From: a virus
IMG/VR virus record: IMGVR_UViG_3300031787_000011
Direction: 5' to 3' (one strand)
DNA: 64,000 bases
Part shown: piece by piece, positions 32,859 through 60,300 of the stretch
How the letters are laid out: every line of letters begins with the position of its first letter
Position numbering within the stretch: the first letter of the stretch is position 1
The notes under the pieces: generated by a model
Seen by the model: the letters and a program-made list of their open reading frames with translations, nothing else
Databases searched by the model: none
Told to the model about the DNA's origin: nothing
Made by a program: the position numbers and the translations under genes

Positions 32859-35800
32859 TTATCTCTTGAAATTCAAGGCTGCTGGTCCTAGTTTTTTGAG
32901 TTCTGGAATCTTGTCGAATAGGATACTGATTATTCCTTGCATTGCTTCATCTGGGGCATTTTGTATGGATGTTCTTCCATCTATATTTATAACATTAGAG
33001 TTAGAAACATTGCTAGAAGAAGCTCCATTAGGAAATGCTGATGTTATTCCATTTCTCATGGCCTCTGTTATCGCATCGGAAAACTCTCCAATTGCAAAAT
33101 TTGGAACGCTTCCTTGAGCGGCAGATGGGAAAGACATTCTCGGTGCAGACATTCTCATTCTTGAATAAACATCTCCAGAAGCCATCATGCTATTGCTCAT
33201 GGCAGCGAAGTTAGGAACTATACCGCTGGCTCTTTCTTGCATTACTTGCTCAGCAGTGACTCTTCTCCTCGCCGCCTCTTCTGAAACATCTTGAGGGAAA
33301 CTTGGAATAGGTCTGTTCCTAAATTCTATTGTTGATGCAGGAATAACTTGATTAGCTTCTCTAGCAGCTTGCGCTTCTCTTGCTGTTTTATAAATATTAA
33401 AAGATCTGGCAAACTCTGCATCTTTGAAATCTGTTGACTTGAAAGATCCAAGGCCATTCTTTCCTTCTTGGCTTAGTAAATAATTTATCTTATCTTGAGT
33501 GGTTAAATATCCGGCAGACTCAGCATTTTTATCAAAAGATTCTAAGAAAGATTTTCTTAATTTTGAACCTTGGGCTGCGTTTTCCGCTGACATTTCTTTA
33601 TCGATTCTACCTATTTCGGCGGCAGCTTGGGCAGACGCTCTAGCATCCATAGCTGCTTTTGCAGCTTGTTTTTGCTTTTCAATTATGCTTTCTTGCTCTT
33701 GAGTATCTTGAATATTTTTATTTATTTGAGCTTGCCTAGATCTAGAGAGCTGGAAAGTTTCAGAAACTAATGGATTTCCTGCTGCTTCATTGTATCTATT
33801 TATTTCTCTTAATAATTCCATTTTTCTAGGAATTATTCTATTTTCTTCTACGGCTTCCCTGCTAGTCAAACCTCTTACTCGCTTTGAAGACACGGCAGAT
33901 AAGCCCATTGTTTTATAACCTGCTCCGTACATGGCGTCCAATAACCCAGTCGCTTCTACTCCTTTTATAGCACCATAACCCAAAGCTCCGACTGCGAGAG
34001 GAAGAGCCAGGGTAGTTGCGAGGCCAGCGCCAGCTATACCAGCTCCTAATAAGCTTAACGAGCCAATTCCGCTAGATATATTTCCTGCTCCAATTAATTT
34101 TTCATCTTGATTAACAATTTGGTTAACTCCTTGTGCGATTTCAAAGCCAGCGGCTCCTACTCCAAGCGCTCCCAGAGCTTTGCCTCCATATTTACCTAAA
34201 AATTTTAAAGCATTTTTACTAAATCCAGAATTAGAAGTAAATCTTCCTAACGCGTCTCTGGCTCTTGCTGCAGGTTTTGCTACAGCAGAAGCTCCGCTTT
34301 CTTTGAATAATAAGGCGCTTGAAATATCTGCCGCCCTTTTACTTGTTGAAATTCCTTTCGGAGCAAAGCCTTTGGGCATTGTCCTTATTTGATTCCCTAA
34401 TACTTGATCTACTAATTTTTGAGTTGTAGATCCGCGCATATACCCACTTGAACCCAATGATTCTGAAGGGTTAAGCTCAAAAACTACAGTACCGACTCTT
34501 CCCCTTCCTCCTGAGTAAAATTCTTTAGTATTGACTCCTGCTTTTTTTGCGCTTTCTAATGTTGTAGCTCCTACATCTACTCCGAAAAATGCATTTTTTA
34601 TTCCTTTTTTAGCTACAAGTTCTCTGATGCTTTTTACGGCTGTGGCTTGCGCTGCTTTTTTATACTCTTGAGCTACTTTAGCGGCTTCTTTACCTAAACC
34701 AGATTTACTTAAAGCACTTAAACCTTCTTTAGAAGTTATGTCGGCAGTGCCAGCTCCTATTTTCAATACAGAGCCCCCTTTAAGCAATTTAACTTTTCCA
34801 TTCGCGTCAACAGCCACATGGACTCTCATTTCTCCATAATGAGGGCCTTCTACAGCAGCTTGCGTAAAAAATCCTCTAGCTTCTCCGCTTTGAAATCTTT
34901 TTATAATTTCCGCCGTATCTCCCAATCCTATTCCTCCGCTTCTTCCGAAAACTCCTTGCCCTTGAGCAAAACTAGAACCAAAAGCTGTTTTAACTAGAGT
35001 TTGATTGCCTCCTGAAATTTTATTTATTTCGGCTAGCAAATTTTCTGGAGTCAATTTATTTGCTCTAGATAATTTTCTTAATATAGGATCTAAACGCTGA
35101 GATTTAGGAATAGTAGAAATTTTTAATTCATCTAATTTACTTATTCCAGGATCTGCGATTTTTAAAATATTACTTCCTCTTAATTGAGAGCTTAATGTTT
35201 TAGTGCTATAAGGCTGAGTAGATATTGTTTTCGCGCCTTTAGGCAAAGACTCTTTATCTATAAGTTGAGATCCAACTTTGCCAGAAGGTGTAATTTTATA
35301 AAATCCTTCTGTTCCATGATCATACACAAATAAATTGCCAGCTTTTGCAGCTGACGAACCAACAGAAGCTACTTTTTCTCCGTATAGAGCGTAATTAGGA
35401 ACATACCCGCTAGACCTCATTCCTAAACTTCTCAAGCCATTTTTTTCATCGATACTATTTGTGACGCCGAATCCATATGGGTTAGAAGCATTTATTAAAT
35501 CCGGGCTTCTTTCCAAATTAATATTAGCCATAGCAAAGTTAGGAACGCCCATTATTCCTCTGCTGGCTAGCGCTGTTTTTTCTCTATTTACGGCGTCTGC
35601 TATCGAGCTAGAATATTTTGTTAAACCATTTGCGTTGCTTGGTATTCCGGTCGGCATTAATCCGCCCATACCTGCATAAGCTGAAGCGGCTGCTTTGACT
35701 TTTGATTCGTAATTTCCTTCTGATAATTTTACTTCGTCAGTTGTAACATTTACCAAAGCTGTTTTTATACCAGTAGCTCCAAACGCAGTCTTTAAACCAT

Positions 35801-38800: not shown

Positions 38801-41426
38801 CTATTAATATTTTAGCAAAATTAGGAACATATCCACTCGCCCTTCCCTCGATGCCAGATAAAGCGGATCTTACTGTCTCTGGGCTATATTTTTCTTTATG
38901 TACGCTATTGGATTTAAAAATAGCAGCCTGCAAACCTGCTGCGCCAGTTTCTATTTGATGTGATTTAGCAAATTCATTAGCTAATGATATCAATTTTGCC
39001 GCTTCTGTTTTGCTAGGTTTTTTGCCTCCAAGGATAGCTTGGATTACATTTGTATCTATTGGAAAGGCTGTTTTATCTTGCAATATAGCTCTAGCGTAGT
39101 GTCTAGTTTTAGCCGTGTCGTCGCTTCCTAAATCAACCCCTCTTAAAGCCTTCGACAAACCATATCTTCTGGCATCATCTCTAGTTCTTATATTTCCTTC
39201 GGCAGATACTTCACCTTTTTTGCCGAATAAACCCAAAGACGCTACATTTTTGTGCCTGCTAACTATTTTTGATGGAGCTAAATCAAAATAATCTTCTACA
39301 TTAGTAGATCTTGTTTTCATGTACCTGTTGAATATTGGAGCCGCGAATTGAGCAGCTACATAATCAGGCACAGAAGGAGAAATAGCAGAAGTTATATTAG
39401 CGTAAATTTTAGCTTCTTGTGGGGAAAGTTTTTTGCCACTAAATTCTTCGCCATGTATATTATAAAATCCTGCGTAATCCTTTCCTTGTTCATAATGCTT
39501 TTGAAATCTAGCAAAGATTTCTTTTTTGCCGATTCTTTGGATGATGTCTTTACGTTTTGCAAAATTAGGAATATACCCAGAACTCATTCTGGGAATGTCT
39601 TGCATTTTCCTATATTTAGGAATTATCGCGGTGTCTCCTGTGCCAGCAAAGTTAGGAATAACATCCTCTTCGCTATTGACCATTACTGGCTGAGTCTTGC
39701 CTTTAATTGTCGCTTGTATTAATTTAGCTTTTGGATTTTTAGCTCCATAAGCCTTGGCCATAGCGACCTCTTCTTGAGCTCCGCCAAATGTCGGGACATA
39801 TCCAGAAGCTCTTACTCTGCTTGGGCCGCCTCTAGCGACAACTGTAGGAATTATTCTAGCCCTTAAAGCTTCTTGCGTTTTTAGTTGTTTATTTTGCTCT
39901 CTTAAAGTTTGTAATACTGCTTGCTCCGCTGCAGCCAATGAAATGGTTCCCTTTTGTACAAGAGCAACTAATTTAGGACTTTGTGATAAAACATCATTAA
40001 CAGCTTTTTGCGAAGCTAATGATTTTTCTCCAGCGAATACTTCATCAAAATTTTTACTTACATCTTTTATAGAACTAACTCCGAATTTAACCATCTTAGC
40101 TAACAAAGTGCCTCCGATTCCCACTAGAAGAGGGATGCTACCAGTCGCTATAGTTTTTCCAAGGGCAGAGGCGGCCCCTTTAAAAAAAGACTCTCCTACA
40201 GATTTGCCGCTTTCCTCAGATTTTCCTAAAAGATCACTTGTAGGATTTACTGCTTTTAATAATATTTCAGAAAATGAACTACCGATCCTAACTAGTGGCT
40301 CTAACAATGGCTTACCTAATGCGGCAGCAGCTTCCTGAGCTTGGTTTTTTGTTTGTTGTAATAAAGCTGATAAGCTCTTATTTAATTCTTCGTTCTTTTT
40401 CTTAGCTTCATCTGTTGCTGCGCTAGAAATTTTTAAAGCACTAGCATAAACGCTATTTGAGCTAGAAAGATCTTTAATTAAAGCGTTAACTTGGTTGATT
40501 TGGTAAATACCACCAATTAATTCTGCTGTTCTTGATTTTTCTATCTGACTTAAATTTTTTGTAGCATCAGCGTAATTCTTAAGCACGGACAAACCATCCA
40601 ATAAGAATCCATTTTGATCTTTAATAGCAACACCCAACTGCTCCAACTGACTAAGAACCTCTGGTCTTTGTAGGCGAGTAAATATTGTCTTTAAAGCGTT
40701 ACCAATTACAGCGCCACCACGACCAGTTATTTGTTGAGCGGCTGTAACTGTAGCTATTAGCTTGTCTATGCTGATTCCGCTTTCTTCCGCAGAGCTACCT
40801 ACACGGCTAAGAGCCTCGTTCAATTGAGCAGAGCTAACAGCAAATCTTGTATCAACAGCAATTAACTTATTGACAATGTCTGTTGAGCTTAATGCTTCCT
40901 TATTGAAGCTGTTTATCGCAGTAGTGACACCATTTACAGCATCTGCATAACTAATTCCAGATATTCTTGCTAGTGTTAAAGCATCTTCTGTTCTTCTTAA
41001 TACTTCATTAGCAGACAAACCTTGTCTTGCGAATTCTTTAGCAGCTTCAGAAGCGGCTTCGAAAGGAACAGCGGCATTTCTTGCTACTTTGAATAACGAC
41101 TGAGAAAACCCTTCTAGTTGATCTCTAGATTGGCCTAAAAATGTATTTAATTCTACAAGTTGCTTATCGATTTCTATTGTAGCTCTTGCACCAGCTCTAA
41201 TAGCTTCTGAAACTTTGTAGATAGCGCCAGCAGTTAAACCGAAGGCTGTAACGCGGGCTGTAGCAGCTTCCAGAGATTTCCTGAATTCCGTGACATCTCC
41301 GCTTATTCTTCCCAGTGGTTGACCAAATTTAACAGAAGACGCTCTTCTACTAATACTATCAAAAGCTAAGTCTACCTGCTTTGTATTCGGTACAAGATTT
41401 AAATTTACGTTTACATTAGCTGGCAT
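32859..41426 (-). CDS. Tape measure protein (TP901/PhageMin_Tail N-terminal domain) with embedded HhH-GPD-like and ATP-grasp-like domains
   Basis: N-terminal EAAKEFARQGLS...ALTLARISG...AINSF...AVSSAQLNEAL...TGRGGAVIGNALKTIFTRL is a typical TMP core. Ala/Lys-rich helical composition, hydrophobic segments, and position after the tube and chaperones. Confidence 0.93.
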   Translation of the reverse strand: MPANVNVNLNLVPNTKQVDLAFDSISRRASSVKFGQPLGRISGDVTEFRKSLEAATARVTAFGLTAGAIYKVSEAIRAGARATIEIDKQLVELNTFLGQSRDQLEGFSQSLFKVARNAAVPFEAASEAAKEFARQGLSANEVLRRTEDALTLARISGISYADAVNGVTTAINSFNKEALSSTDIVNKLIAVDTRFAVSSAQLNEALSRVGSSAEESGISIDKLIATVTAAQQITGRGGAVIGNALKTIFTRLQRPEVLSQLEQLGVAIKDQNGFLLDGLSVLKNYADATKNLSQIEKSRTAELIGGIYQINQVNALIKDLSSSNSVYASALKISSAATDEAKKKNEELNKSLSALLQQTKNQAQEAAAALGKPLLEPLVRIGSSFSEILLKAVNPTSDLLGKSEESGKSVGESFFKGAASALGKTIATGSIPLLVGIGGTLLAKMVKFGVSSIKDVSKNFDEVFAGEKSLASQKAVNDVLSQSPKLVALVQKGTISLAAAEQAVLQTLREQNKQLKTQEALRARIIPTVVARGGPSRVRASGYVPTFGGAQEEVAMAKAYGAKNPKAKLIQATIKGKTQPVMVNSEEDVIPNFAGTGDTAIIPKYRKMQDIPRMSSGYIPNFAKRKDIIQRIGKKEIFARFQKHYEQGKDYAGFYNIHGEEFSGKKLSPQEAKIYANITSAISPSVPDYVAAQFAAPIFNRYMKTRSTNVEDYFDLAPSKIVSRHKNVASLGLFGKKGEVSAEGNIRTRDDARRYGLSKALRGVDLGSDDTAKTRHYARAILQDKTAFPIDTNVIQAILGGKKPSKTEAAKLISLANEFAKSHQIETGAAGLQAAIFKSNSVHKEKYSPETVRSALSGIEGRASGYVPNFAKILIAAKYYDALKVGRAKGVNISKTGDVQIIGREVFGGIGFSASRIGKGYASAVRSTSPTTALKNASRKAGVTKSIIIPVVAPSAVNDLVPENLKTNEALLQQFLANHPKPKEIIASLSERGFNVKSILNSHSGSEIKSIIDILSSDLFNKKILVKSANELKDPRLVKFFAPGGVKARGPKGAYAFGSSIASMQQGEYASKVPGKHKSYPILVTGKVGPSISKPINAEEIFPGITDNKSSVFFSSAQLFGTRVLDTDNPEHLKLLDRLGYSKKILRQEKLIAGGYIPNFAGLSDAIGREKTMSGLPASQIMAHFDEGGNPIAVTNKRDEPNGLKDVVPNFAKIPTALLSRFFGKSGGKLANPISGALELFEKQAYASIIDELAEREVIPSAVSKFISQALPASAGIKNIGTAILSKKASTGSRVAAGLTGLAQIYGGVKLGELSGGDLDQRIQSKKFEDALDRSKKAFTDLAENTTELSASLSKLDAAYKDPKADPREIVKLVKTREDLIKKISIKNPELISRLAGQTSISDQITVLEENLKKAQTEEAIRTSALSFGRKGKITGEQAPAELSSFFNEIINRANADIFKTDLSQATTANFGEILKKAGLDVKEFSDQLNSDQLKKAFIEALKVAQGIEKISANQAKEIARISKPLASRRQAVEDARDIRTEIKKALEQQLPELAELAGTFSRRAGISASSEATLAIKKADSAVSFQNSLLTQLNDKEFLANLSPAVEARLRNIEAPGAGAGRELESLQKLPGLSEAQSKGIQKLIDFNSQQSRDINKATIIAEESKKIQLKFLALQEKIAFGGDIRASLNPQMRAEAMASSIRGPLTYQLGSMIGSRRGQIAGATDFLTDTLQKYPGLLTTKGGKEPADIQAVKGELTRLNAFDMQKDLMRRAGMAQMMGLGQTAGLLRGKAFDQRYLLESAGLKTNALFGSPEIPKDIQKAMGDLEKFNVESVRQAKTEDAALRVLENTISPLKEKLIEVSESQSKALITAFENGLKTAFGATGIKTALVNVTTDEVKLSEGNYESKVKAAASAYAGMGGLMPTGIPSNANGLTKYSSSIADAVNREKTALASRGIMGVPNFAMANINLERSPDLINASNPYGFGVTNSIDEKNGLRSLGMRSSGYVPNYALYGEKVASVGSSAAKAGNLFVYDHGTEGFYKITPSGKVGSQLIDKESLPKGAKTISTQPYSTKTLSSQLRGSNILKIADPGISKLDELKISTIPKSQRLDPILRKLSRANKLTPENLLAEINKISGGNQTLVKTAFGSSFAQGQGVFGRSGGIGLGDTAEIIKRFQSGEARGFFTQAAVEGPHYGEMRVHVAVDANGKVKLLKGGSVLKIGAGTADITSKEGLSALSKSGLGKEAAKVAQEYKKAAQATAVKSIRELVAKKGIKNAFFGVDVGATTLESAKKAGVNTKEFYSGGRGRVGTVVFELNPSESLGSSGYMRGSTTQKLVDQVLGNQIRTMPKGFAPKGISTSKRAADISSALLFKESGASAVAKPAARARDALGRFTSNSGFSKNALKFLGKYGGKALGALGVGAAGFEIAQGVNQIVNQDEKLIGAGNISSGIGSLSLLGAGIAGAGLATTLALPLAVGALGYGAIKGVEATGLLDAMYGAGYKTMGLSAVSSKRVRGLTSREAVEENRIIPRKMELLREINRYNEAAGNPLVSETFQLSRSRQAQINKNIQDTQEQESIIEKQKQAAKAAMDARASAQAAAEIGRIDKEMSAENAAQGSKLRKSFLESFDKNAESAGYLTTQDKINYLLSQEGKNGLGSFKSTDFKDAEFARSFNIYKTAREAQAAREANQVIPASTIEFRNRPIPSFPQDVSEEAARRRVTAEQVMQERASGIVPNFAAMSNSMMASGDVYSRMRMSAPRMSFPSAAQGSVPNFAIGEFSDAITEAMRNGITSAFPNGASSSNVSNSNVINIDGRTSIQNAPDEAMQGIISILFDKIPELKKLGPAALNFKR
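33091..39812 (-). repeat. Ten dispersed copies of peptide motif (R)[AS][SG]G[YI][IV]PNFA or its core within the TMP
   Basis: Approximate positions: 39780-39812 RASGYVPTFG, 39642-39662 VIPNFAG, 39556-39585 SSGYIPNFAK, 38812-38841 ASGYVPNFAK, 37941-37970 AGGYIPNFAG, 37788-37808 VVPNFAK, 35529-35549 GVPNFAM, 35388-35414 SSGYVPNYA, 33201-33233 RASGIVPNFAA, 33091-33120 AQGSVPNFAI. Confidence 0.95.
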
Positions 41427-47660: not shown

Positions 47661-48992
47661 TTATAGCCCAAATCTAGATTTTGCTGTTTTGTAATTTTCT
47701 AAGATTTCCGATGGGCTCAGTACATTACTATATAAATTAAAATTTGCGACATTACAATTTGATCCGTACAGCGTGTTTTGAGCGCCTAAATAAAGATTAC
47801 CAACTAAATTTCCAGAAGGAATATCTGTTGAACTATTCCTTGCTATTCCATTTATATAAATTATTGCTAAAGGGCTGATTGTGCTTACGCTTACTGTTAT
47901 ATGGCACCATTGCCCAAATCCAATATTAACATTAGAATAAATAGTTGTAGTAGTCCCAGGAGCGCTTATTGGATTATAGTGAAATCCTACATTACTAGGA
48001 TAATATACTGTATAAGTTCCAAAAGCGTCTGAACCAAAGATTCTATCGCCAACTGCGACATTAGATATCCATTTGCAAAAAAAAGAAAAAGTATATTCTG
48101 AAAGAGATATAGGTGATGTTATTATTGCATAATTTGTACCGCTAAAAGTTATGACCCCACCGTTAGTATTAGTAAATGTAGGACCATTCACTAAAGTTGC
48201 ATTTTTTTGATTTCCAGTAATATCTTTGAGTTGAATAGGAGATCTATTTACTAATTCATAAATACTTGGCTCTGTTCCGTCTACTAAATCAATTCGCGGG
48301 TCATACCATTGTAATCTGCTAGTATTATCGCCACAATAATAATGAAAAACTCTTTGGAAAAGATATGTGCTTGTAGGCGCAAATTTAAAATCTCCGCCGC
48401 CGGTATTTCCTCCTATATCTGCAACTTTTTCTACACTACCTACGTTGTAAAGTCCACTATCTGGATGCCTTCCTGTGAAAGTCGTATCGAAAGGATACAA
48501 ATGCCCAACAATTAAATACCAAACATTTTGAGTAAAATTTGCAATATTATTATAATACCAATATGGATTTGACTCATCGACACTATCAGTTGTCCTTTTT
48601 ATATATTGTCCAGCATCCCAAGATGTACATCCTAAATAAGCAGTGCCGCCTGTTGTGCTTGATGTTCTTCTCGCCCAAACGCTAAATCTATACATTTTTG
48701 ATTTATCTATAGAATAATCAGCATATGTAACCCAACCGCCATCCGCTTCTCCATCGCCAGAAGGAAAACTACCCCAAATAATACTTGTTTCGCCCCAAGG
48801 ATTCGTGCCAGAAAATCTTTGATTTTCAGTCGCAGCACTTTGATTCGGAGTATATCCAGCTACCCCTCCAGTTCCCGTTGTCCACGTAGACATATTTATT
48901 AAAGAATATTTTAAAAAGCTATTCCTGTCTGCTGCGTCTAGGCTAACTAATAAAGAATCTTTTGTTATATTTGGTCCTAATGATGCTGCCAT
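47661..48992 (-). CDS. LamG/concanavalin A-like virion protein with inserted CBM-like domain
   Basis: GPNITKDSLLVSLDAA...DITGN..ATLVNGP...WCHITV...YINGI...YSNVLSPSEILENYKTAKSRFGL. Confidence 0.85.
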   Translation of the reverse strand: MAASLGPNITKDSLLVSLDAADRNSFLKYSLINMSTWTTGTGGVAGYTPNQSAATENQRFSGTNPWGETSIIWGSFPSGDGEADGGWVTYADYSIDKSKMYRFSVWARRTSSTTGGTAYLGCTSWDAGQYIKRTTDSVDESNPYWYYNNIANFTQNVWYLIVGHLYPFDTTFTGRHPDSGLYNVGSVEKVADIGGNTGGGDFKFAPTSTYLFQRVFHYYCGDNTSRLQWYDPRIDLVDGTEPSIYELVNRSPIQLKDITGNQKNATLVNGPTFTNTNGGVITFSGTNYAIITSPISLSEYTFSFFCKWISNVAVGDRIFGSDAFGTYTVYYPSNVGFHYNPISAPGTTTTIYSNVNIGFGQWCHITVSVSTISPLAIIYINGIARNSSTDIPSGNLVGNLYLGAQNTLYGSNCNVANFNLYSNVLSPSEILENYKTAKSRFGL

Positions 48993-48998
48993 AAATTT

Positions 48999-49709
48999 TT
49001 ATAATCCAAATCTACTTTTAGTTGCGTTGTAATTTTGTAATATTTCTTGTGCCGAAAGCGTTCGGTTATATTGTTTAATAGTTGATAAATTAATATTGGC
49101 GTCAGGTCCTCCTAAATCTCCACCTATATAATAGAGATATCCAGAACCTGGATCTACAGAACCTCCTGAAGTTATAGAAACGGCGGCACCTTGTTGTATA
49201 CCATTTTTATAAAAAGTTATATTATTTGCACTTCTATTAACGACAGCGCTAACATTCATCCAAGTTAGTACATCAGTAAATGTCGCAACAGTTGAATAAT
49301 AAATGTTTTGATCAATATCAGTGGTAGTATTTAAAAAAAAGGCTACAGTCCCAGCCGTAGTGTAATTTAATAAAAATAAGAATCCATGTAAATTAGCACC
49401 TCTCGCCTCTACTATTCCATTATATCCATTATCTTTTTGGTATACCCATGCATCTATCGTAAAGCTACTTAATCCTGGATTTAAACTAGCTGGATTACTT
49501 ACACTAATATAGTCATCTGTGCCATCAAAAACAATAGTTCCGCCATTTATATTGCTAAATGTGGGTCCATTGGTTAATGTTCCAATGTAACCAGTTCCGC
49601 TTAAATCTTTCCAAGTGGTACCTGTGCCAGAATAACTATTTTTATCAGCAGCATCTAAACACAATACCAATCCACTTCTAACTATTTTTGGGCCTCTTAT
49701 TATTGCCAT
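48999..49709 (-). CDS. LamG/concanavalin A-like virion protein (minimal, no insertion)
   Basis: GPKIVRSGLVLCLDAADKNSYSGTGTTWKDLSG...YNRTLSAQEILQNYNATKSRFGL; ATG 49709 preferred to TTG 49724. Confidence 0.9.
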   Translation of the reverse strand: MAIIRGPKIVRSGLVLCLDAADKNSYSGTGTTWKDLSGTGYIGTLTNGPTFSNINGGTIVFDGTDDYISVSNPASLNPGLSSFTIDAWVYQKDNGYNGIVEARGANLHGFLFLLNYTTAGTVAFFLNTTTDIDQNIYYSTVATFTDVLTWMNVSAVVNRSANNITFYKNGIQQGAAVSITSGGSVDPGSGYLYYIGGDLGGPDANINLSTIKQYNRTLSAQEILQNYNATKSRFGL

Positions 49710-49713
49710 AATT

Positions 49714-50886
49714 TTATAATCCAAATCTTGATTTTGTTGCGTTGTAATTTTGTAATACTTCCGCTGCTGTTAATGCTCTATTATAAATTCTAGCGTAGCC
49801 CATAGTCATATTTACATATAAATTAGAATACGCTAATCTTCCAATAAGCAACGGATTACTATTCGCGCTAGGCGTAGTAGGATACCCAGCACTATTGATT
49901 TGATTGCCATTAACATAGTTTATTTGAGTTCCATATATTCCAGTTGATACTATATGATACCAAATCCCATTAGTAAAACTAGTATTGAATCCTAGCCCAG
50001 CATTATCTCCGACATATCTAAATAATAAATTTGTAGTTGATGCTGTATATGAATCTACTCTTATTTCATATCCGTCAGCGTTACTCAATGTTTTGCTTAT
50101 GACTCCTCCGTATAGCTGTGTCTGAGTACCTAATTTTATAAAACACTCTAATGTTAAATTAGTCAAATTTGCTAAAACATTCCCGCAATTAATATGATTG
50201 CTATTCGCTGGATTAAATGTTATGCTCCCTTTGCTTTCGCCGACAAATAGCGGGCCATTAGTTAGTGTTCCTGTATTATTATTACCACTTAAATCTTTCC
50301 AAATCGTATTTCCATAATAATATGGATTAAATTGTGTTGCGCTTGATGCTCTTTCTATTTGCAATCCATCCCACCAAATAGTTATACCAGAACCACCAGT
50401 ATGTGTTCCATCTAATCTAAATTGAATATATCTAGTATTTGCATTTGTAAATGTATAACTGAAACTAAATCTTTGCCAGCTAGTCGTTATAGACATATTT
50501 CCAGAACTATAATCATTTATAGTAAAAACCGCTCCATTGGTATCTGCGCCAAAAATAAATAATTGACCATCTGTGGCTACGCTCGCTTTTGCCCAAACAC
50601 TAATTGTCCAAGTTTGACCACTTAAAGCAGAAGCTAAATTAGCAGCAGAAGAACCATATTTTCCAGCATAAGCATCGTTGCCTGTTATTACCATTTTCAT
50701 TGGCGTGGAACGATACTGTCTTATTATTGTAGTGTCTCTAGAAAGCGTGCAAGATTGTATTTCGCTTCCTATATTAGCAAATACGTCAGTAGGATTAGGT
50801 ATAACATTCGGACTATAACTATTCATGTCCGCCGCATCCAATGCCAACACCAATCCATTCGTTGCTATTTTGGGGCCGTATTGCAT
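49714..50886 (-). CDS. LamG virion protein with inserted carbohydrate-binding-like domain
   Basis: Same scaffold; the insert contains GQTWTISVWAK...ITTSWQRFSFSYT...WDGLQIERASSATQF. Confidence 0.88.
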   Translation of the reverse strand: MQYGPKIATNGLVLALDAADMNSYSPNVIPNPTDVFANIGSEIQSCTLSRDTTIIRQYRSTPMKMVITGNDAYAGKYGSSAANLASALSGQTWTISVWAKASVATDGQLFIFGADTNGAVFTINDYSSGNMSITTSWQRFSFSYTFTNANTRYIQFRLDGTHTGGSGITIWWDGLQIERASSATQFNPYYYGNTIWKDLSGNNNTGTLTNGPLFVGESKGSITFNPANSNHINCGNVLANLTNLTLECFIKLGTQTQLYGGVISKTLSNADGYEIRVDSYTASTTNLLFRYVGDNAGLGFNTSFTNGIWYHIVSTGIYGTQINYVNGNQINSAGYPTTPSANSNPLLIGRLAYSNLYVNMTMGYARIYNRALTAAEVLQNYNATKSRFGL

Positions 50887-50896
50887 GTATTATTGT

Positions 50897-50902
50897 TTAC
50901 AC
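50897..50902 (-). promoter_or_regulatory. GTGTAA putative late-promoter motif
   Basis: GTGTAAacaataatacATG (10-nt spacer, no SD). Confidence 0.5.
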
Positions 50903-50903
50903 T

Positions 50904-52979
50904 TTATAAACCGAATCGGCCTTTTGTAGCATTGTAATTTTGAAGAATTTCAGCAGCTGATAAAGCTCTATTGTAAACCAAAATACTTGCGATATCTAAA
51001 TCTGTAAAATAACTTGTTCCCGCTCTAGATCCAATAAATAAATAATCATCTCCAAAATTATTAGTATTATTTGAAGCTAAACTAGGAAGAGGATTTGTTA
51101 TAACAGTAGCTGCAACTCCTTGATTATATAAAGAAGCTTCTGCTGTAGTTTGACTTTTATCAAAAACAGCAGTGCTTATTTCCCAATTTAAATCATTATA
51201 ATTACTTTTATTCCAAACTCCTAAGTTATATCCATTGTTTCCTTTTACTCCTGCAAATACGTCATAATTTTGAGATGCAGAATTATCATTATATGTCCAT
51301 ACAAATCCATATTGAAAAGAATTAAAATCAGTAGATAATTCACATATAAATTTAGTATTTCCTGAAACTGGATACGATCTAGCTTTAAATATAACTAAAA
51401 CAGTAACAGCATTATAAGCCGAAAGATTTAAGGTAGATGTAGTCTTAATATAATTATTTGTACCATTAAGAGAAAAATAACCATTAGAATTCCAAGTTGG
51501 AGAATTATAAAGCGTTGCATGATTACTATTACCACTAACATCATACCAAGTTGTACCTGCTCCAGCATAACTATATGGATTACCAGCATCAAGATTTAAT
51601 ACAAGACCTTGTTGTACTATTGTATTTGCAAATTTTGACTTTTGAGCTTCGTAATTTTGAGCAATTTCTACCGCGCTTAATGCTCTGCTATATATTAAGG
51701 TAGATCCTACATTAATTGGAGCATATCTTCCAGAAACGATATCGTCTCTAGCAATTATTAAGTCTCCGATTGTAGATCCAGAGTATGATATTGCAGAAGT
51801 ATTTGCTGTTGTATTCGCAAGCACTCCATCTTTATAAACTTTTACATTTGAGCCATCAAAAGTACCCACTAGATTAGTCCAAGTATTTAATGGCATTGTA
51901 GTAGTAGCATCTATAACAGCGGCCGCAGCATTTCTAATTCTAAACCAAACAGTATCTGTATTATATGTCGCCATCAATGCGTATGCATCTCTGTCATTTC
52001 TTCTTAAAAAATTGCATATACTTGATTGATAAGCGTTTCTTTTAAGCCACATTGAAACAGTAACTTTTGCAGGATTTAATATAACATTATCCGCCACCAC
52101 TAAATAATCAGAGGAGCCATCAAATCTAAGCGCTCCTTTATTATAATAATCTGCCGCAGGCATATCTGCTGTAGTACCATTACCAAGTAGCCCATGATTA
52201 TTATTTCCACTCAAATCAATTATACTTCTATCTGTATTAAGAATTCCCCATTTTTGGCCGAGATATGTATGGACTAATTTTCTTTCTGTAACTGATAATA
52301 ATCTATTAAAAACAATAATTTCAGCAACTTCACAATTGCTTAATTCAGCGCCATAAATATTTACTCCTAAATACCAAGGACCAGCATCTGCGCCTGTACT
52401 ATTCGTTGCTAATGCAGTTCCTGTTGCATAAAAATTTGCTGAATCATTTGATGGTCCACCCCAATCTCCTAAATATAATTTCCAATTAGTATCAGCAGCA
52501 GAATAAGTTTGATATACCCATCCATTTCCATAATATTTATTCGTTTCACTTGCCCAATGTCCTAAAAGCCAATTATTATAACTGCTATTTGAAGTTAAAA
52601 TTCTTCCTGTTCCAGAAGATGCATTTGTATATCTATCAACTACAAAAATACTATACGCGCTATTTCTTAAATCTATTGTAGAATTTTGTATATTTTGAGC
52701 GGTAGTAAATGCTACTACTTTTCTAGAATTTTGAGAAGTACTACGTGTTGGTCCAGAAGATGGTGGCGTCATATGATAATTAAATCCACTTTTATCTCTC
52801 CATTGACTTACAGTAGTTCCTGAGCTATAACTAAATGTTGTATCATCCGCAGCATCTAGCCATAAAATCAATCCACCTTTCACAGGCAAATCTATGGCTG
52901 GATAAGATTTATTATGGGAAGGATCTAAAGATAAGACCAGATTTTCTGTTGTTATTTTTGGATTATAATGTTGAGCCAT
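50904..52979 (-). CDS. Multi-LamG virion protein (nested plus tandem domains)
   Basis: LWLDAAD...VSQWRDKSG...EIIVFNRLLS..ER..VHTYLGQKWG is nested in the first scaffold, followed by a second full scaffold ending NYNATKGRFGL. Confidence 0.88.
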   Translation of the reverse strand: MAQHYNPKITTENLVLSLDPSHNKSYPAIDLPVKGGLILWLDAADDTTFSYSSGTTVSQWRDKSGFNYHMTPPSSGPTRSTSQNSRKVVAFTTAQNIQNSTIDLRNSAYSIFVVDRYTNASSGTGRILTSNSSYNNWLLGHWASETNKYYGNGWVYQTYSAADTNWKLYLGDWGGPSNDSANFYATGTALATNSTGADAGPWYLGVNIYGAELSNCEVAEIIVFNRLLSVTERKLVHTYLGQKWGILNTDRSIIDLSGNNNHGLLGNGTTADMPAADYYNKGALRFDGSSDYLVVADNVILNPAKVTVSMWLKRNAYQSSICNFLRRNDRDAYALMATYNTDTVWFRIRNAAAAVIDATTTMPLNTWTNLVGTFDGSNVKVYKDGVLANTTANTSAISYSGSTIGDLIIARDDIVSGRYAPINVGSTLIYSRALSAVEIAQNYEAQKSKFANTIVQQGLVLNLDAGNPYSYAGAGTTWYDVSGNSNHATLYNSPTWNSNGYFSLNGTNNYIKTTSTLNLSAYNAVTVLVIFKARSYPVSGNTKFICELSTDFNSFQYGFVWTYNDNSASQNYDVFAGVKGNNGYNLGVWNKSNYNDLNWEISTAVFDKSQTTAEASLYNQGVAATVITNPLPSLASNNTNNFGDDYLFIGSRAGTSYFTDLDIASILVYNRALSAAEILQNYNATKGRFGL

Positions 52980-52982
52980 ATA

Positions 52983-55118
52983 TTATTTTCCGAATCTAAA
53001 TTTTGTTGCGTCGTAATTTTGAAGAACTTCTTCAGCCGATAATACTCTATTATACAATTTTACTTGACTAATACTTGCAGCTATAGTATAATTATTATCT
53101 CCGTGAAATCTTCCTATCCAAAAATTATTTGAAGTCGTTGATGTAGTATTTCTATAAGCCGCAGTTCCGATTAATATACCGTCAATATACAATTTGGCAT
53201 TTGTGGATGAATCATTAGTTACGACGATATAATGCCATTTGGCATCTGGATATGAACTGTTTGTGAATGGGTTGCTTTCACTATCACCGGTGTTCCAGTT
53301 TATATAATTTCCAGAAAAATAAAGATTTGGTCCAGATCCATAATTATCGCTGTCAATTGAAATTGGAATTTTTACAGCATAATTTGATGATCGTATCCAA
53401 ATTGCAATGGTTGATGATGCGGGAATATTTGTTACGGATGAAACAGAATAATCATCTACACCGTCAAAACTTATACATTTTGGTTCGGTTGATATAAAAG
53501 AAGGACCATTAGTTAATGTACTATTATAACTATTTCCACTTAAGTCTCTCCACGAAGTCCCACTTCCGGAATAACTACTATAAACATCAGCATCTACATA
53601 AAATTGTAAACCATTAGTTACAATATTCGGTAAACTAGCAAATTCCGATTTACTTTGTTCATAATTTTGTAAAATTTCTGAAGCAGTTAACGCTTTACCA
53701 TATATTTTACAACCGGCAACATAACCATCTAACATCCTCCCATATGTAGAAGCTCCTTCAGCGCCTATTCCTAAATAGTTTGTTATATTGATAGTTCCTA
53801 TGGTGAAAGTAGTTGATGAAGTTTTATCTAATACGCCATTCAAGTACCATCTTATATATGCCCCATCGAACGTCCAAACCACATGGTTCCATGCGTGTCT
53901 TGTTACCGATGTTGTGCTTGGCTGATGACCCACAGTAGAACCAGCGGAGCCATACATAAATGCATTAAATTTTCCATTGCCATCTAACGACAAATAAAAA
54001 TTGCTATTAGCAATCATTATAGCCCCTAAATCAGTATTTGTTCCAGCAAAACTAAAACTATTTGGTTTAACCCATGCTTCTAATGTAATTGAAGTTGTTA
54101 TAACTGAACTCATCCACGAAATAGAATCAGCAAAATAAAAATTGCTTTGTAATGGAGAACCTGTTGCATTTGCGGGATTTAATCTATAAGACTTGTCAAT
54201 AACAGGTATATTATTATTTTGACATGTCGCTACTTTGCCAAAAACTAAATCTCTATTTGTTAATGTAGTTTGTAATAATGGTATTCTCCATTTATTAGCT
54301 AAATAATTATGAACTTGGGATCTTTCTATGGCGGATAATTGTCTACTATAAATAATTAATTCTCCGATATCTCCATAGTATGGCTGATTGGCTGATGTAT
54401 TGACGGCCCCCATAAACAAATTAAAACCAGCCCCTCCTATTGTTATTGTTTGAGTCCCGGAAGAGTATAAATCAGGTCGTTGTCTTCCATTCGCATAAAT
54501 TATATTTGTGCCGCTTCCCGCATTGGTATGAGAAAATGTAATTAAAGTTGGAGACCCTTGCAAAAAGTCAGAATTAGTATTTGGACTTGTTAATGGAAGA
54601 ACTGTAACATTTCCACCACCCCCATTCCAATATACCCATAATGTTCTTGCGTAATTTGATCCATCTGGATCATTTACATCGAAATGAAGATTATTTGTGT
54701 TTGTGCCATTATTTATACTGAATGGATATTGATAAGTTGTGCTATTTACATCCCCCCGCATCACTAAAAATATTGTAAATTCGGTATATGATGTTGTAAA
54801 TGGGCCGTAGATATAGTCATTCGCGCTAAATCTCATGGTATTTCTACCATTCAACCCACCAAGAACTGATAATGGTTCATTTGCAAGCGTTAGCCCACCG
54901 CCAGTTAATACTAAATTACTATTTGATTTATCTCCCCAATATCTTACATTTCTAGTACTAGTTTCGGTTGTGATTGTAGATAGATCATCTGCGTCAAACC
55001 AAGTAATGCAACCATTAATTTGTTTTGGTGTTTTGATAAAACCTGCGCTAACTGATGGATCTAGAGCAAAAGCAAGAGCAGATGTTACTGTACTTGGTCC
55101 TGAATTGATTGTACTCAT
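52983..55118 (-). CDS. Multi-LamG virion protein (nested plus tandem domains)
   Basis: WFDADD...WGDKS...ELIIYSRQLSAIERSQVHNYLANKW, then two scaffolds, ending NYDATKFRFGK. Confidence 0.88.
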   Translation of the reverse strand: MSTINSGPSTVTSALAFALDPSVSAGFIKTPKQINGCITWFDADDLSTITTETSTRNVRYWGDKSNSNLVLTGGGLTLANEPLSVLGGLNGRNTMRFSANDYIYGPFTTSYTEFTIFLVMRGDVNSTTYQYPFSINNGTNTNNLHFDVNDPDGSNYARTLWVYWNGGGGNVTVLPLTSPNTNSDFLQGSPTLITFSHTNAGSGTNIIYANGRQRPDLYSSGTQTITIGGAGFNLFMGAVNTSANQPYYGDIGELIIYSRQLSAIERSQVHNYLANKWRIPLLQTTLTNRDLVFGKVATCQNNNIPVIDKSYRLNPANATGSPLQSNFYFADSISWMSSVITTSITLEAWVKPNSFSFAGTNTDLGAIMIANSNFYLSLDGNGKFNAFMYGSAGSTVGHQPSTTSVTRHAWNHVVWTFDGAYIRWYLNGVLDKTSSTTFTIGTINITNYLGIGAEGASTYGRMLDGYVAGCKIYGKALTASEILQNYEQSKSEFASLPNIVTNGLQFYVDADVYSSYSGSGTSWRDLSGNSYNSTLTNGPSFISTEPKCISFDGVDDYSVSSVTNIPASSTIAIWIRSSNYAVKIPISIDSDNYGSGPNLYFSGNYINWNTGDSESNPFTNSSYPDAKWHYIVVTNDSSTNAKLYIDGILIGTAAYRNTTSTTSNNFWIGRFHGDNNYTIAASISQVKLYNRVLSAEEVLQNYDATKFRFGK

Positions 55119-55121
55119 ATT

Positions 55122-56363
55122 TTATATTCCATAAGTTTTACGAGTTGCATTGAAATTTTGTAATACTTCTGCGGCAGTTAATGCGCGATTATAAGCTCTT
55201 GCAGTTGATACAATTGAATTACTTGCATAATCTGTACTTGCCGCTCCAATATAATATGGAACTGTCGATGAGTATTGTCTTAATTGTTTAGTTAATGTCG
55301 CGCTGTCTCTTAATACGCCATTTACATATAAATATCTCATAGCATTTTCAACATCATTCACAAAAACACCATGATACCAAGTGTTTAAACTCAATGTTAC
55401 GCCAAGACCTGAATTTGTTACATCATTATACCATGTAATTGCATAAATAACATTTGGAGATCCTTTATCATGATTAAATCCACTATGATATCCTTGTCTT
55501 CCAAAAAAATATCCATTATATAATCCCGGCGGAGTTCCTAATAATTTAAACCAACATTCATATGTATGACTATTGTTACTTAAATTATCTAATATAGAAT
55601 TGGCAACTGGAGTTGTTATTGCACCTTGAGAATTTGCATTAAAATAATATCCTCCACTATCAAAAGCTATAGCAGAACTGGTAAGATCAATATTATAATT
55701 ATTTCCACTTAAATCTATTAATCCGCCTCCACCAGCAATAGTATTTGCAGATCTAGAGCCTAAAACTAAAGGAGTAGAATATGCTTTCTGTTCTATTTGA
55801 TATCCAAAATATGCAAGTTTTTCGCCGACATTATCGCCAGTATAACTACTCATATATACTCCAGTTTCATTTGATGGAGTAGTAAATGTTATTGATAGTC
55901 TAATCCAAGTTCTTCTTGGCCAATTTAAATAATTTGTATCACCATTATACGCAAAATTACCTAATGAATTATTATTTACGTTTGTCCTTAAATATGGTTG
56001 GGACTGCATCGATGTTCCATCAAACCAATAATAAATGGACATCGCATATTGAGTGCTTGGAGAAATCGGAATAATAGAAGAGCCCAACTGTTGATTGCCA
56101 GTGGCAGTCACAGTTGAGCTAAAGATTCGTAAATTAGTAGTATCTACATTTAAAATGACAGGCTTTGATATAGAGGTATCATTATCATTGAAAATAGTAG
56201 AACCTGAATTTACCCACCAATTACCATTGGAGTTTAAGTAATTATTGGTAGAATAAGCGATATTTGTAGTGGCCTGACCTCGAAAACTTTTAGCATATTC
56301 ACGATTATAATATAACTGTAAATCTTTTTTTACTATTCCTCTATTGGCATGCTGTACGGCCAT
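55122..56363 (-). CDS. LamG virion protein with inserted carbohydrate-binding-like domain
   Basis: IVKKDLQLYY...SFRGQATTN [insert ...WIRLSITFTT...QIEQKAYSTP] DLSGNN...YNRALTAAEVLQNFNATRKTYGI. Confidence 0.85.
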   Translation of the reverse strand: MAVQHANRGIVKKDLQLYYNREYAKSFRGQATTNIAYSTNNYLNSNGNWWVNSGSTIFNDNDTSISKPVILNVDTTNLRIFSSTVTATGNQQLGSSIIPISPSTQYAMSIYYWFDGTSMQSQPYLRTNVNNNSLGNFAYNGDTNYLNWPRRTWIRLSITFTTPSNETGVYMSSYTGDNVGEKLAYFGYQIEQKAYSTPLVLGSRSANTIAGGGGLIDLSGNNYNIDLTSSAIAFDSGGYYFNANSQGAITTPVANSILDNLSNNSHTYECWFKLLGTPPGLYNGYFFGRQGYHSGFNHDKGSPNVIYAITWYNDVTNSGLGVTLSLNTWYHGVFVNDVENAMRYLYVNGVLRDSATLTKQLRQYSSTVPYYIGAASTDYASNSIVSTARAYNRALTAAEVLQNFNATRKTYGI

Positions 56364-57347: not shown

Positions 57348-60300
57348 TTATCTTCTTTCTAAAGCAGTTACTCTAGATTTTAGCTCATTAATTTGCGCCT
57401 GCTGCTCTTTTATAGCTTCTGCTAACACTGCTGTTATTCTTGGATAATCTAAAGATCTAGCGTCTGGGCAATCATCATTTAATTTCCAAGTACTTACTAG
57501 TTCGGGTAATACTTGCTCTAATTCTTGCGCAATAAATCCGATAACAGGAGTATTTAAACTATAACCGTCTCTTGTATTGTTTATGAATTCATTCCATTCG
57601 TATGTTACGCCGCGCAACTTCATTACTTTTTGGAGCGCGTTTTCAATTGGTTTTATATTTTTCTTGAATCTTAAGTCTGATGACGTTGGGAATGAGGTCG
57701 CATGAGCATTACCATTAACATCCAAAGTATAAGCTGGGGTTACCCCTACACCTAATATATAAGTTCCGGGGCTAACTTGATTTGATAAAAATAATTTGTC
57801 TGAGCCGCTGTACCATCTTAATACATCACCAGCTACTCCATTTTGCAAGTAATTGTACCATTTTGTAGCACCTGCGTCTTGGAATTGAATGCCTCCTTGG
57901 TAACTAGTGCTTGATCTATTTATAATATAATAAGCTGCTCCCGCACCGCCGTTTAATGTCACAGTAGATGTTCCATCGTCAGTTTCAAGAGAATTTCCAA
58001 GAGTAGTAGTATTTGTAAATTTAGCTATTCTATTTGTTGTACCGCTTGCATTTGCTGCGCCTTGAGACCCAGTGCTACCTTGAGACCCAGTGCTGCCTTG
58101 AGAACCTAAGCTTCCAGTACCGCCAGTGCCGCCTTGAGATCCTATGGCTCCTGTACCGCCAGTACCACCTTGAGACCCAGTGCTACCTTGAGATCCAGTG
58201 CTACCTTGAGACCCAGTGCTGCCTTGAGAACCTAAGCTTCCAGTACCGCCAGTGCCGCCTTGAGAGCCTAAGCTTCCAGTACCGCCAGTGCCGCCTGTCC
58301 CGCCAGTACCCCCTGTTCCGCCAGTGCCGCCAGTGCCGCCTTGAGAACCTAAGCTTCCAGTACCGCCTGTTCCGCCAGTACCACCTGTTCCGCCAGTGCC
58401 GCCAGTGCCGCCTTGAGAGCCTAAGCTTCCAGTACCGCCAGTGCCGCCTGTCCCGCCAGTACCACCTGTTCCGCCAGTGCCGCCTGTCCCGCCAGTGCCG
58501 CCTGTTCCGCCAGTACCACCAGTGCCGCCTGTTCCGCCAGTAGCAGCGATAGAATCTAAAACATCGTAAGTGTTAGCGGAAGATAAATACCAAACTAATG
58601 GGACCGTTGATGTTGGATTCGGAGTCCCATTTAAGGCGAAAAAGTTTGTAGAACTAAAAGTTCCTGTATTTCCGGCCTTTACGATCATGCAATACTCTTC
58701 CCATTTTCCTGTGCCAAGAGTAGAGGTAGTCCAATAAGATGTTCCGTTAGTACCAATAGAATTACTATGGAAACTAAGCGAATATCCAACAGGTATTTTA
58801 GCTACAAATACGCAAGCAAAAACAGAATTAGCTCTAGTATTATCCGCAAAATACCATCCTCCAAAATAAGGCGACGTTGCAGCAGAAGTATGAGTTATTC
58901 TTACTACGTATCCGCTATTATTTGGAGCTCCTAAACCAGTCGAAGCTATTCTAGCTATAGATATGGTCCCTGTGGCGTTGTTATCGTAAATGTTTATTCC
59001 ATTTAAGTTATTATCAATGAATGTTTCGTTATTGTGTAAAGACTTGCCTCTTCTATAAGTATCAAAACCTATAGTAGACTGACCTAATTCTACAGTCGCC
59101 GCTGTGGCGAAAGAAGTTTGGCTCCTTATATTTAGATCTCCTATTAAATTTAAAGTTGATCCATTAAAAGTCAAATTAGACTCTCCATTAGCCCCGGCTC
59201 CTCCAGTGGCAGTAAGAATATAATCATTTACATTGTTAGTAAGCGCTACTGAAGAGCCTTGAGATCCTAAACTTCCAGTGCCGCCAGTGCCACCCGTTCC
59301 GCCAGTACCACCTGTTCCGCCAGTGCCGCCTTGAGAGCCTAAGCTTCCAGTACCGCCAGTGCCGCCTGTTCCGCCAGTACCACCAGTGCCGCCTGTTCCG
59401 CCTGTTCCGCCAGTACCACCAGTGCCGCCTTGAGAGCCTAAGCTTCCAGTACCGCCAGTGCCGCCTGTTCCGCCTGTTCCGCCAGTACCACCAGTGCCGC
59501 CTTGAGAACCCAAACTTCCAGTACCGCCAGTGCCGCCTGTTCCGCCAGTGCCGCCTGTTCCGCCAGTGCCGCCTGTTCCGCCAGTACCACCAGTGCCGCC
59601 TTGAGAACCCAAGCTTCCAGTCCCACCTGTGCCGCCAGATGTTCCAGATGTCCCAGATGTTCCAGAGCTTGCGGCATTGACTTTTGTCTTAACTGTTCCA
59701 TCAGCGTCTATGACTAAACAATTTGTGCTTGAGCTTGCAGATATTCCAGTAAATCTGATAGTACCAGAAACATCTAAAGTATAAAGAGGGTTGCTTTGGC
59801 CTATTCCAACTTTATTATTTTTAAGAACAAAATCGCCGCTTCCATATTGCCCCAATACAACTCTATCATCAGCGAAGACTTCCATCACTGGCAATCCTGC
59901 ACTATTATTTACAGACATTAATGAATCTGATAAATCATCAATTACAGAAAAGAGTGTCCCGTTTGTGCCGTCCGCCCTGAGTAATGTAGCGCCAGATGTA
60001 GTTGAATTTAAATGCAATCTACCAAGAGGACTTGTAGTGCCGATACCAACATTACCACCATCAGCTTTGATGGTCATGCGGGTGGTCATTGTGCTACTTA
60101 CATTTTGTCTAAAATAAATATCTCCATAAACTTGAGAAGAAGTTACTGGATACGTATTATCAATGTAAGATACAGCGAAATTTGGATTATATATTAAATG
60201 CAATCCATGAGCATCAGAAACTCCATAACTTATTTTTATGCCCTGATCGCTATTTGCAGAACTTGTTATTCTAACAAATGGATTTGCCCCGTGAATATGC

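Follow-up and report, generated by a model that had tools for sequence, protein, structure and literature searches.

An ATP-Grasp Ligase Domain Predicted within a Giant Phage Tape Measure Protein

Introduction

Tape measure proteins (TMPs) are usually viewed as rulers that bear, at most, domains for cutting the cell wall, and known enzyme domains inside TMPs are muralytic, examples being the M23 peptidase of T5 pb2 and, in mycobacteriophages, the Rpf-like TMP motifs. Here, we describe a TMP of different composition encoded in a 64,000-nucleotide stretch of viral DNA (IMG/VR virus record IMGVR_UViG_3300031787_000011), hereafter called the window. This protein, P0001, contains a domain (residues 2015–2345) predicted to adopt the complete ATP-grasp fold of amino-acid and peptide ligases. 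As in muralytic TMPs, a predicted catalytic module lies inside the TMP, near a hydrophobic, membrane-inserting segment, and is presumably ejected before the DNA. The muralytic domains have peptidoglycan, outside the cytoplasm, as their substrate and require no ATP; the predicted ligase would need ATP-Mg, which limits its site of action to the cytoplasmic side or the producing cell.

The ATP-grasp amino-acid and peptide ligases (TTL/TTLL, LysX/ArgX, RimK, DcsG, BacD, PGM1, and Ddl) have in common with the TMP domain a three-part fold, with structural Z-scores of 9.5–12.4, as well as the order and secondary-structure placement of the strand-2 lysine, the glycine-rich lid, the hinge glutamine, the ExR motif, the aspartate, and the ExN motif. 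All of these ligases are free enzymes, whereas the TMP domain is embedded in a virion protein of 2855 amino acids (aa) and has no match to them at the sequence level. ATP-grasp ligases are also encoded by phages. Free-standing RimK-like genes exist in cyanophages S-RIM8 and S-RIM12, Pelagibacter phage Mosig, and Yersinia phage YerA41, yet these are separate genes of 200–300 aa, detectable with RimK by BLAST; none is annotated as a tape measure, and tblastn with the TMP domain found no match to any of these genes. In YerA41 (MW570730.1, 29556–30212) and vB_Yru_GN1 (LC779065.1, 66714–67370), the free-standing RimK-like gene is annotated as a ‘structural protein’, which hints that other phages, too, may package ATP-grasp ligases in the virion. 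Another group of divergent phage ATP-grasp modules, proposed to tag proteins, is the R2K clade (CDC123, DUF4343; PMC4431377).

In overall architecture, P0001 resembles the polyvalent proteins of phages and conjugative elements (Iyer et al. 2017, PMC5512222), which are likewise giant virion-associated chains of unrelated modules, thought to be delivered with the DNA. The description of polyvalent proteins does not mention TMPs and refers to ATP-grasp proteins as RNA ligases only. Polyvalent proteins contain several enzymatic domains and a zincin-like processing peptidase; in P0001, one enzymatic domain was verified and Pfam detected no peptidase. The modules of P0001, unlike those of polyvalent proteins, are set apart by the motif GY[VI]PN[FY]A. 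An initial annotation of the window, made from the sequence alone, knew of no TMP with an ATP-grasp domain. Likewise, full-text literature searches on TMPs with ATP-grasp, PNFA, or polyvalent proteins returned no paper describing such a fusion.

The Predicted Fold of the TMP Domain

The initial annotation placed six ATP-grasp-like motifs directly after the sequence SSGYVPNYA. All six were found in that order and place in the single open frame of the 2855-aa TMP, with SSGYVPNYA ending one residue ahead of the domain start (Table 1). Domain residues are numbered here from residue 2015, so that adding 2014 gives the protein numbering; searches used residues 2015–2350 (also residues 1990–2360).

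AlphaFold2 (AF2) run on the single sequence, without an alignment, gave an unusable model (pLDDT 44.7). When provided with a 23-row alignment, it yielded a model (m47abb07ef52f) with a pLDDT of 85.4 and a pTM of 0.86, and the five models fell between pLDDT 83.8 and 85.4. Searching the PDB with this model using Foldseek returned ATP-grasp enzymes in all of the best 50 matches, led by TTL (E = 8.8e-6), and VIA-align applied to the Foldseek list gave Z-scores of 10.7–12.4 across 178–249 residues. Similarly, an exhaustive VIA-align comparison with 48,161 representative chains, carried out without Foldseek, listed 50 rows, all ATP-grasp, with Z-scores of 7.7–11.8. The highest values belonged to TTLL11 (11.8), DcsG (11.0), PGM1 (10.9), BacD (10.8), BesA (10.6), and carbamoyl-phosphate synthetase (10.6), with ArgX (10.5), LysX/ArgX (10.4), and RimK (9.5) further down. 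Taking both VIA-align runs together, LysX scored 10.9, RimK 9.5–10.8, DcsG 11.0–12.2, and SAOUHSC_02373 12.4. In BFVD, the matches were CDC123, TTL, Ddl, and phage ATP-grasp proteins, the top one being a Klosneuvirus CDC123 (E = 3.6e-4). The ESM Atlas searched by shape returned PurK, RimK/GshB, and unnamed ATP-grasp clusters (TM 0.46–0.57), and searched by language-model features, it returned ATP-grasp families exclusively, many of them viral clusters. Thus, at the level of a predicted structure, the ATP-grasp assignment is robust, since the model is confident and the Foldseek, VIA-align, BFVD, and ESM Atlas searches all converge on ATP-grasp, as the initial annotation had anticipated.

Searches by sequence gave no counterpart of these matches. 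Residues 2015–2350 had no match in Pfam, PHROGs, or the PDB by sequence or profile search, and a 22-sequence profile of the family (A1) run against the PDB gave chance matches only (E = 0.28 or worse). None of the 23 family members matched any ATP-grasp Pfam family, PF08443 and PF18030 included, at E-values up to 10, and tblastn of the domain found nothing in 50,697 GenBank phage records. An hhalign comparison of the A1 profile with E. coli RimK gave a probability of 1.7%, which is not significant; the alignment itself is sensible, pairing LVKTAFG…QGQGV with VVKLVEGTQGIGV of RimK, FFTQ with LVQEY, and EMRVHV with DIRCLV, and is no evidence on its own.

Homologues of the domain were recovered in other large proteins. 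A word-indexed search retrieved 25 proteins of 1718–3829 aa, with 34–100% identity in the domain, and 23 of the 25 have a precomputed Pfam tape-measure match. When 1.84 billion representatives were searched exhaustively with phmmer, the full domain appeared in only eight clusters, seven of them large proteins (1191–3692 aa) and one a 167-aa fragment, while the remaining matches covered just the first 50, NHL-like residues of the domain. A search with a second profile (A2) among proteins of 91–623 aa, in which 8000 candidates were scored, produced no free-standing relative.

Catalytic Residues and Family Placement

ATP-grasp enzymes, whose fold unites a RAGNYA domain with a protein-kinase/PIPK-like domain, are recognized by a small number of conserved positions, namely, a linker lysine, the lysine of RAGNYA strand 2, an ssxGbGl loop, an acidic residue in strand 4, and an ExN motif in strand 5 (PMC4431377, Section 5). 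Counterparts were identified by mapping residues onto the secondary structure of the model. The candidate linker lysine is K2097 of SKLDE, an invariant residue that the model positions between the subdomains. The RAGNYA strand-2 lysine corresponds to K2146, in strand 129–135, which is conserved in 23 of 23 sequences and pairs, in the hhalign alignment, with the lysine of VVK in RimK. This lysine is followed by a loop of ssxGbGl type ending in A-Q-G-Q-G-V, where G144 and V145 are invariant; residues 136–142 of this glycine-rich loop have low pLDDT, as expected of a mobile ATP lid. The hinge is Q2189. In the kinase-like domain, D2284 provides the strand-4 acidic residue (strand 265–275), and E2317-L-N2319 forms the ExN motif at the end of strand 297–306. 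Lastly, E2199-M-R2201, an ExR motif located in strand 182–192, is unchanged in all 23 sequences.

The residue set that binds ATP-Mg in this superfamily is strictly conserved. The residues invariant in alignments A1 and A2 are K83, L84, K132, T133, F135, G136, G144, V145, G147, E185, and R187, together with H189, D193, K208, G268, D270, E303, N305, G311, and G314. The lysine, aspartate, and ExN residues, whose loss in close homologues the initial annotation considered an outcome against an ATP-grasp enzyme, are all kept in 22–23 homologues down to 34% identity. Because K83, K132, G144, V145, E185, R187, D270, E303, and N305 never change among 22–23 homologues with 34–88% identity, the motif pattern goes beyond chance. 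By analogy with other ATP-grasp enzymes, the domain would bind ATP-Mg, activate a carboxylate as an acyl-phosphate, and join this carboxylate to an amine. The ExR motif marks an assemblage of ATP-grasp ligases that form peptide-like bonds (PMC4431377), and its presence would place the TMP domain in that assemblage. Judging from these residues, the ligase domain is probably still active.

The initial annotation assigned the domain to the RimK/LysX-type ligases. The analysis supports this proposal insofar as a genuine TMP contains a complete ATP-grasp domain whose canonical residues follow the canonical order; membership of the RimK/LysX family is not supported, given the absence of a Pfam match in the 23 members, the hhalign result for RimK, and a structural Z-score tied with those of TTLL11, DcsG, and SAOUHSC_02373. 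In general, scores within about one Z unit are ties, and the family assignment is, therefore, not robust. The R2K clade, also suggested for comparison in the initial annotation, was rejected. In R2K members, the linker lysine and the ssxGbGl loop are both missing, and a second lysine or arginine occurs in the loop just past the strand-2 lysine (PMC4431377). In the TMP domain, by contrast, a G-x-G-V loop is present, as is a candidate linker lysine that is invariant; the defining R2K features are thus absent. The domain is a previously unrecognised ATP-grasp family, found, among the databases searched, within giant TMPs only.

The family departs from known ligases in several regions. Its N-terminal subdomain is small and β-rich, comprising ~80 residues with one helix and four short strands and no Rossmann-like pre-ATP-grasp domain. 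Residues 2023–2066 (domain residues 9–52; 35228–35360, minus strand) resemble one blade of an NHL β-propeller, and this stretch draws many multi-repeat NHL proteins in searches, with E-values down to 4.5e-17 that are inflated by repeat summation. The lid loop spans 13 residues from lysine to valine, versus 10 in RimK, and the stretch that follows the ExR strand is ~12 residues shorter than in RimK. Between the aspartate and ExN lies a hairpin (residues 2285–2316; 34488–34583, minus strand) that spaces the two by 33 residues, versus 12 in RimK, a gain of ~20 residues. The extra length of this hairpin is itself conserved (T274, A279, G283, and F289), and the insert may be a family-specific substrate lid.

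Table 1. Features of the TMP gene and its ATP-grasp domain; positions refer to the window.
Feature	Position	Strand	Basis
TMP gene P0001, 2855 aa	32859..41426	-	Open frame, PF10145, and PHROG matches
TP901-type TMP core, aa 119–301	40524..41072	-	Pfam PF10145 PhageMin_Tail, E = 3.5e-26
Conserved 55-aa element, aa 1960–2014, ending in GYVPNYA (aa 2007–2013, nt 35388–35408)	35385..35549	-	Alignment A3
Predicted ATP-grasp domain, aa 2015–2345	34392..35384	-	AF2 model, Foldseek, VIA-align, BFVD, ESM Atlas
N-subdomain, aa 2015–2094	35145..35384	-	Model secondary structure; sequence like a single NHL repeat
SKLDE, aa 2096, candidate linker lysine K2097	35127..35141	-	K83 and L84 invariant in 23/23; between N-subdomain and central domain in model
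LVKTAFGSS, aa 2144	34971–34997	-	Motif position
Strand with K2146, then Gly-rich loop to G-Q-G-V	34950..34997	-	K132, T133, G136, G144, and V145 invariant
FFTQ hinge strand and E-M-R-V-H-V (ExR) strand; FFTQAAVEG at aa 2186 (34845–34871), EMRVHV at aa 2199 (34815–34832)	34815..34871	-	Strands 170–176 and 182–192 in model; Q175 kept in 22/23 homologues, E185, R187, H189, and D193 in 23/23
FFGVDVG, aa 2280, predicted acidic metal ligand D2284	34569..34589	-	G268 and D270 invariant in 22/22 sequences covering the position; strand 265–275
VVFELNPS, aa 2314, predicted ExN metal-binding motif E2317/N2319	34464..34487	-	Invariant in 22/22 sequences covering it; ends strand 297–306
Hydrophobic Gly/Ala-rich segment, aa 2453–2488, ~100 aa past the ATP-grasp domain	33963..34070	-	Kyte–Doolittle maximum 1.81 over 19 residues
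Two C-terminal PNFA motifs, aa 2735–2741 and 2772–2778	33093..33224	-	37-residue spacing, identical in most PNFA-type homologues

The TMP Gene and Its Setting

P0001 is a genuine TP901-type TMP. Its open reading frame (ORF) of 8568 nucleotides translates without stops over the full 2855 aa, and the identification follows from the PF10145 match (Table 1), matches to ten PHROG TMP families (best E = 6e-49), an N-terminal part with 24–26% identity to TMPs of Bacillus, Lactococcus, and Mammaliicoccus siphophages, and its position in a tail module. It is preceded by the gene of a tail protein containing Ig-like domains and followed by large, tail-tip-sized genes, and this gene order is conserved in the related contigs L008 and L009. 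In addition to the segment that follows the ligase domain, P0001 has a hydrophobic segment at residues 425–452. The G+C content of the window is low, ~0.30–0.40 across most of its length, and IMG/VR relatives sit on contigs of 57–175 kb; the source looks like a large uncultured siphophage. Elsewhere in the window, the minus strand encodes a fibre-like protein of 2158 aa with a C-terminal Peptidase_S74 chaperone domain (57348–63824) and a series of virion structural proteins that are paralogues of one another, with matches to phrog_8510 and phrog_24074 (47661–56363).

Punctuation Motifs and Modules in Giant TMPs

P0001 holds ten [VIL]P[NT][FY][AG] motifs, mostly GY[VI]PNFA, and most homologues carry a similar set, one motif of which ends 1–2 residues ahead of the ligase domain. 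In P0001, this motif closes a conserved 55-aa element whose alignment (A3, 15 homologues) contains 16 invariant columns, with invariant N-P-x-G, T-N, D-E, and G-L. A complex prediction of the ligase, the 55-aa element, ATP, and Mg scored 0.00, which counts neither for nor against binding. At the other end of the protein, the second C-terminal PNFA motif lies 81 residues from the C-terminus in P0001, P0004, and P0006, the proteins checked. The modules between motifs vary among homologues; for instance, P0004 has a DUF7178 that Pfam did not detect in P0001. Further globular blocks of P0001 occupy residues 627–860 and 875–1150.

The homologous TMPs P0023, P0024, and P0027 are devoid of PNFA motifs and have GVPGF[SA]xGG ahead of the ligase; they later carry a motif of the type G-x-V/I-P-G-S-G-x-G-D-x-V/I-P-[AS]-[LM]-L-[SA]-P-G-E-V-V-L-N. 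The comparison of these sequences suggests that TMP punctuation comes in interchangeable kinds.

The exact coding pattern of GYVPNFA was found at no fewer than, i.e., at least, 119 IMG/VR loci (L011–L129). Among the 119 matches listed, 107 are in frame in ORFs longer than 500 aa and 77 are in ORFs with at least three motifs, while the ligase domain is confined to the close family. Three motif-bearing ORFs were sampled, and all three have PF10145 at their start. A 3548-aa TMP of one locus (L112:3939–14582, plus strand) contains a PolyA_pol head nucleotidyltransferase (PF01743; residues 1241–1368, E = 1.2e-13) that begins ~25 residues past an SGGYVPNFAL motif; by its Pfam match, this is a second cytoplasm-type enzyme within a TMP. 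On sequence grounds, giant, modular TP901-type TMPs form a broad class punctuated by GY[VI]PN[FY]A, a motif with possible roles in cleavage, docking, or tube contact.

Possible Site and Mode of Action

The domain could be an injected peptide-tagging enzyme or a modifier of virion proteins, as inferred in the initial annotation. We give about even credence to the reading that residues 2015–2345 are a complete ATP-grasp module of a new, TMP-only family that is delivered by the TMP and acts on a host protein or metabolite. The ligase module would travel in the tail, unfolded or compacted, and would be expelled with the TMP ahead of the DNA, while the hydrophobic segment located 100 residues further on would insert into the membrane. 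The module would then refold on the ATP-containing side and modify a host protein or metabolite prior to any phage gene expression; the GY[VI]PN[FY]A motif just upstream would mark the module boundary and, possibly, a processing or docking site. The placement of the domain in a virion protein suggests that a ready-made enzyme enters the cell alongside the DNA. Delivery is favored by the occurrence of the domain only as a fusion to TMPs (the eight clusters among 1.84 billion representatives, and none at 91–623 aa) and by the nucleotidyltransferase of the related TMP from L112, an enzyme type with cytoplasmic substrates. Several points weigh against this reading. No sequence method ties the domain to any ATP-grasp family, and the assignment consequently rests on the predicted structure and the motifs. 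The substrate-binding part, with its shortening after ExR and long Asp–ExN spacing, is unlike that of known ligases. Lastly, to our knowledge, a folded domain of ~37 kDa cannot fit the lumen of a siphovirus tail. A broader extension of the delivery reading, possible yet doubtful, is that there is a widespread class of ‘cargo’ TMPs, in which GY[VI]PN[FY]A delimits interchangeable enzyme modules that are threaded through the tail and released in the host. Within seconds of adsorption, and ahead of any transcription, the ligase would attach amino acids to a protein or metabolite of the host. If true, this would be a protein-injection route of siphophages comparable to T4 Alt or N4 vRNAP.

The alternatives differ in where the enzyme would act, which reaction it would catalyze, and whether it is an enzyme at all. 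The ligase may work in the producing cell, either modifying the TMP or tail proteins, by adding C-terminal amino acids or cross-linking side chains, before or during assembly, or being excised at PNFA-type motifs as a free late enzyme. There, ATP is at hand without translocation, the limit that the tail lumen sets on a folded module would not apply, the ten punctuation motifs offer potential recognition or cleavage sites, and the structural matches include ligases with protein or peptide substrates (RimK, LysX/ArgX, TTL/TTLL, and the RiPP ligases 7mgv and 7drm). However, the motif lacks side chains with a carboxylate or an amine, and no protease was identified. Moreover, an enzyme active at assembly would not need to be part of a virion protein, no reason for such a fusion is apparent, and the known phage RimK-like genes stand alone. 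We, therefore, consider the cytoplasm of the target cell, after ejection, the more likely site of action, and action in the producing cell rather unlikely, if still a serious contender. The chemistry could also differ, the fold serving carboxylate–thiol (CoA) ligation or phosphotransfer, as in ITPK1 and synapsin-like proteins, instead of amide-bond formation. The unusual substrate-binding region, unlike that of any characterised ligase, leaves room for this, and succinyl-CoA and citryl-CoA synthetases, ITPK1, and synapsin do appear among the matches (Z = 7.7–8.6), but amino-acid and peptide ligases score higher (Z = 10.4–11.8) and the ExR motif is the mark of the peptide-bond-forming assemblage (PMC4431377), so that we regard such a reaction as improbable.

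Equally improbable, in our estimation, is a pseudo-enzyme, in which the TMP would retain the ATP-grasp fold for structure, as a spacer or plug, or for binding, without catalysis. TMPs do tolerate many inserted modules that are gained and lost between homologues; against this, all ATP-Mg-binding residues are invariant down to 34% identity amid variable surroundings, the mean column identity in the domain alignments being 53%, a pattern typical of active enzymes. As for a chance motif pattern combined with a wrong fold prediction, every sequence-based search was negative and the single-sequence model was poor, yet the model built from the alignment has high confidence scores, ATP-grasp is the sole outcome across four independent libraries and two aligners, language-model features agree, and the motifs fall on the expected strands. 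We consider this explanation very improbable.

Conclusions

The ligase domain of P0001 touches on known kinds of proteins, namely, enzyme-bearing TMPs, polyvalent virion proteins, and phage ATP-grasp ligases; what is new is the ATP-grasp family, which escapes current profile libraries. An intact ligase in a TMP implies either an enzyme-carrier TMP that reaches the cytoplasm or an ATP-driven covalent modification in tail assembly, and either would alter the view of siphophage infection or assembly. Motif-punctuated modular TMPs form a large, apparently undescribed class that could hold many further delivered enzymes.

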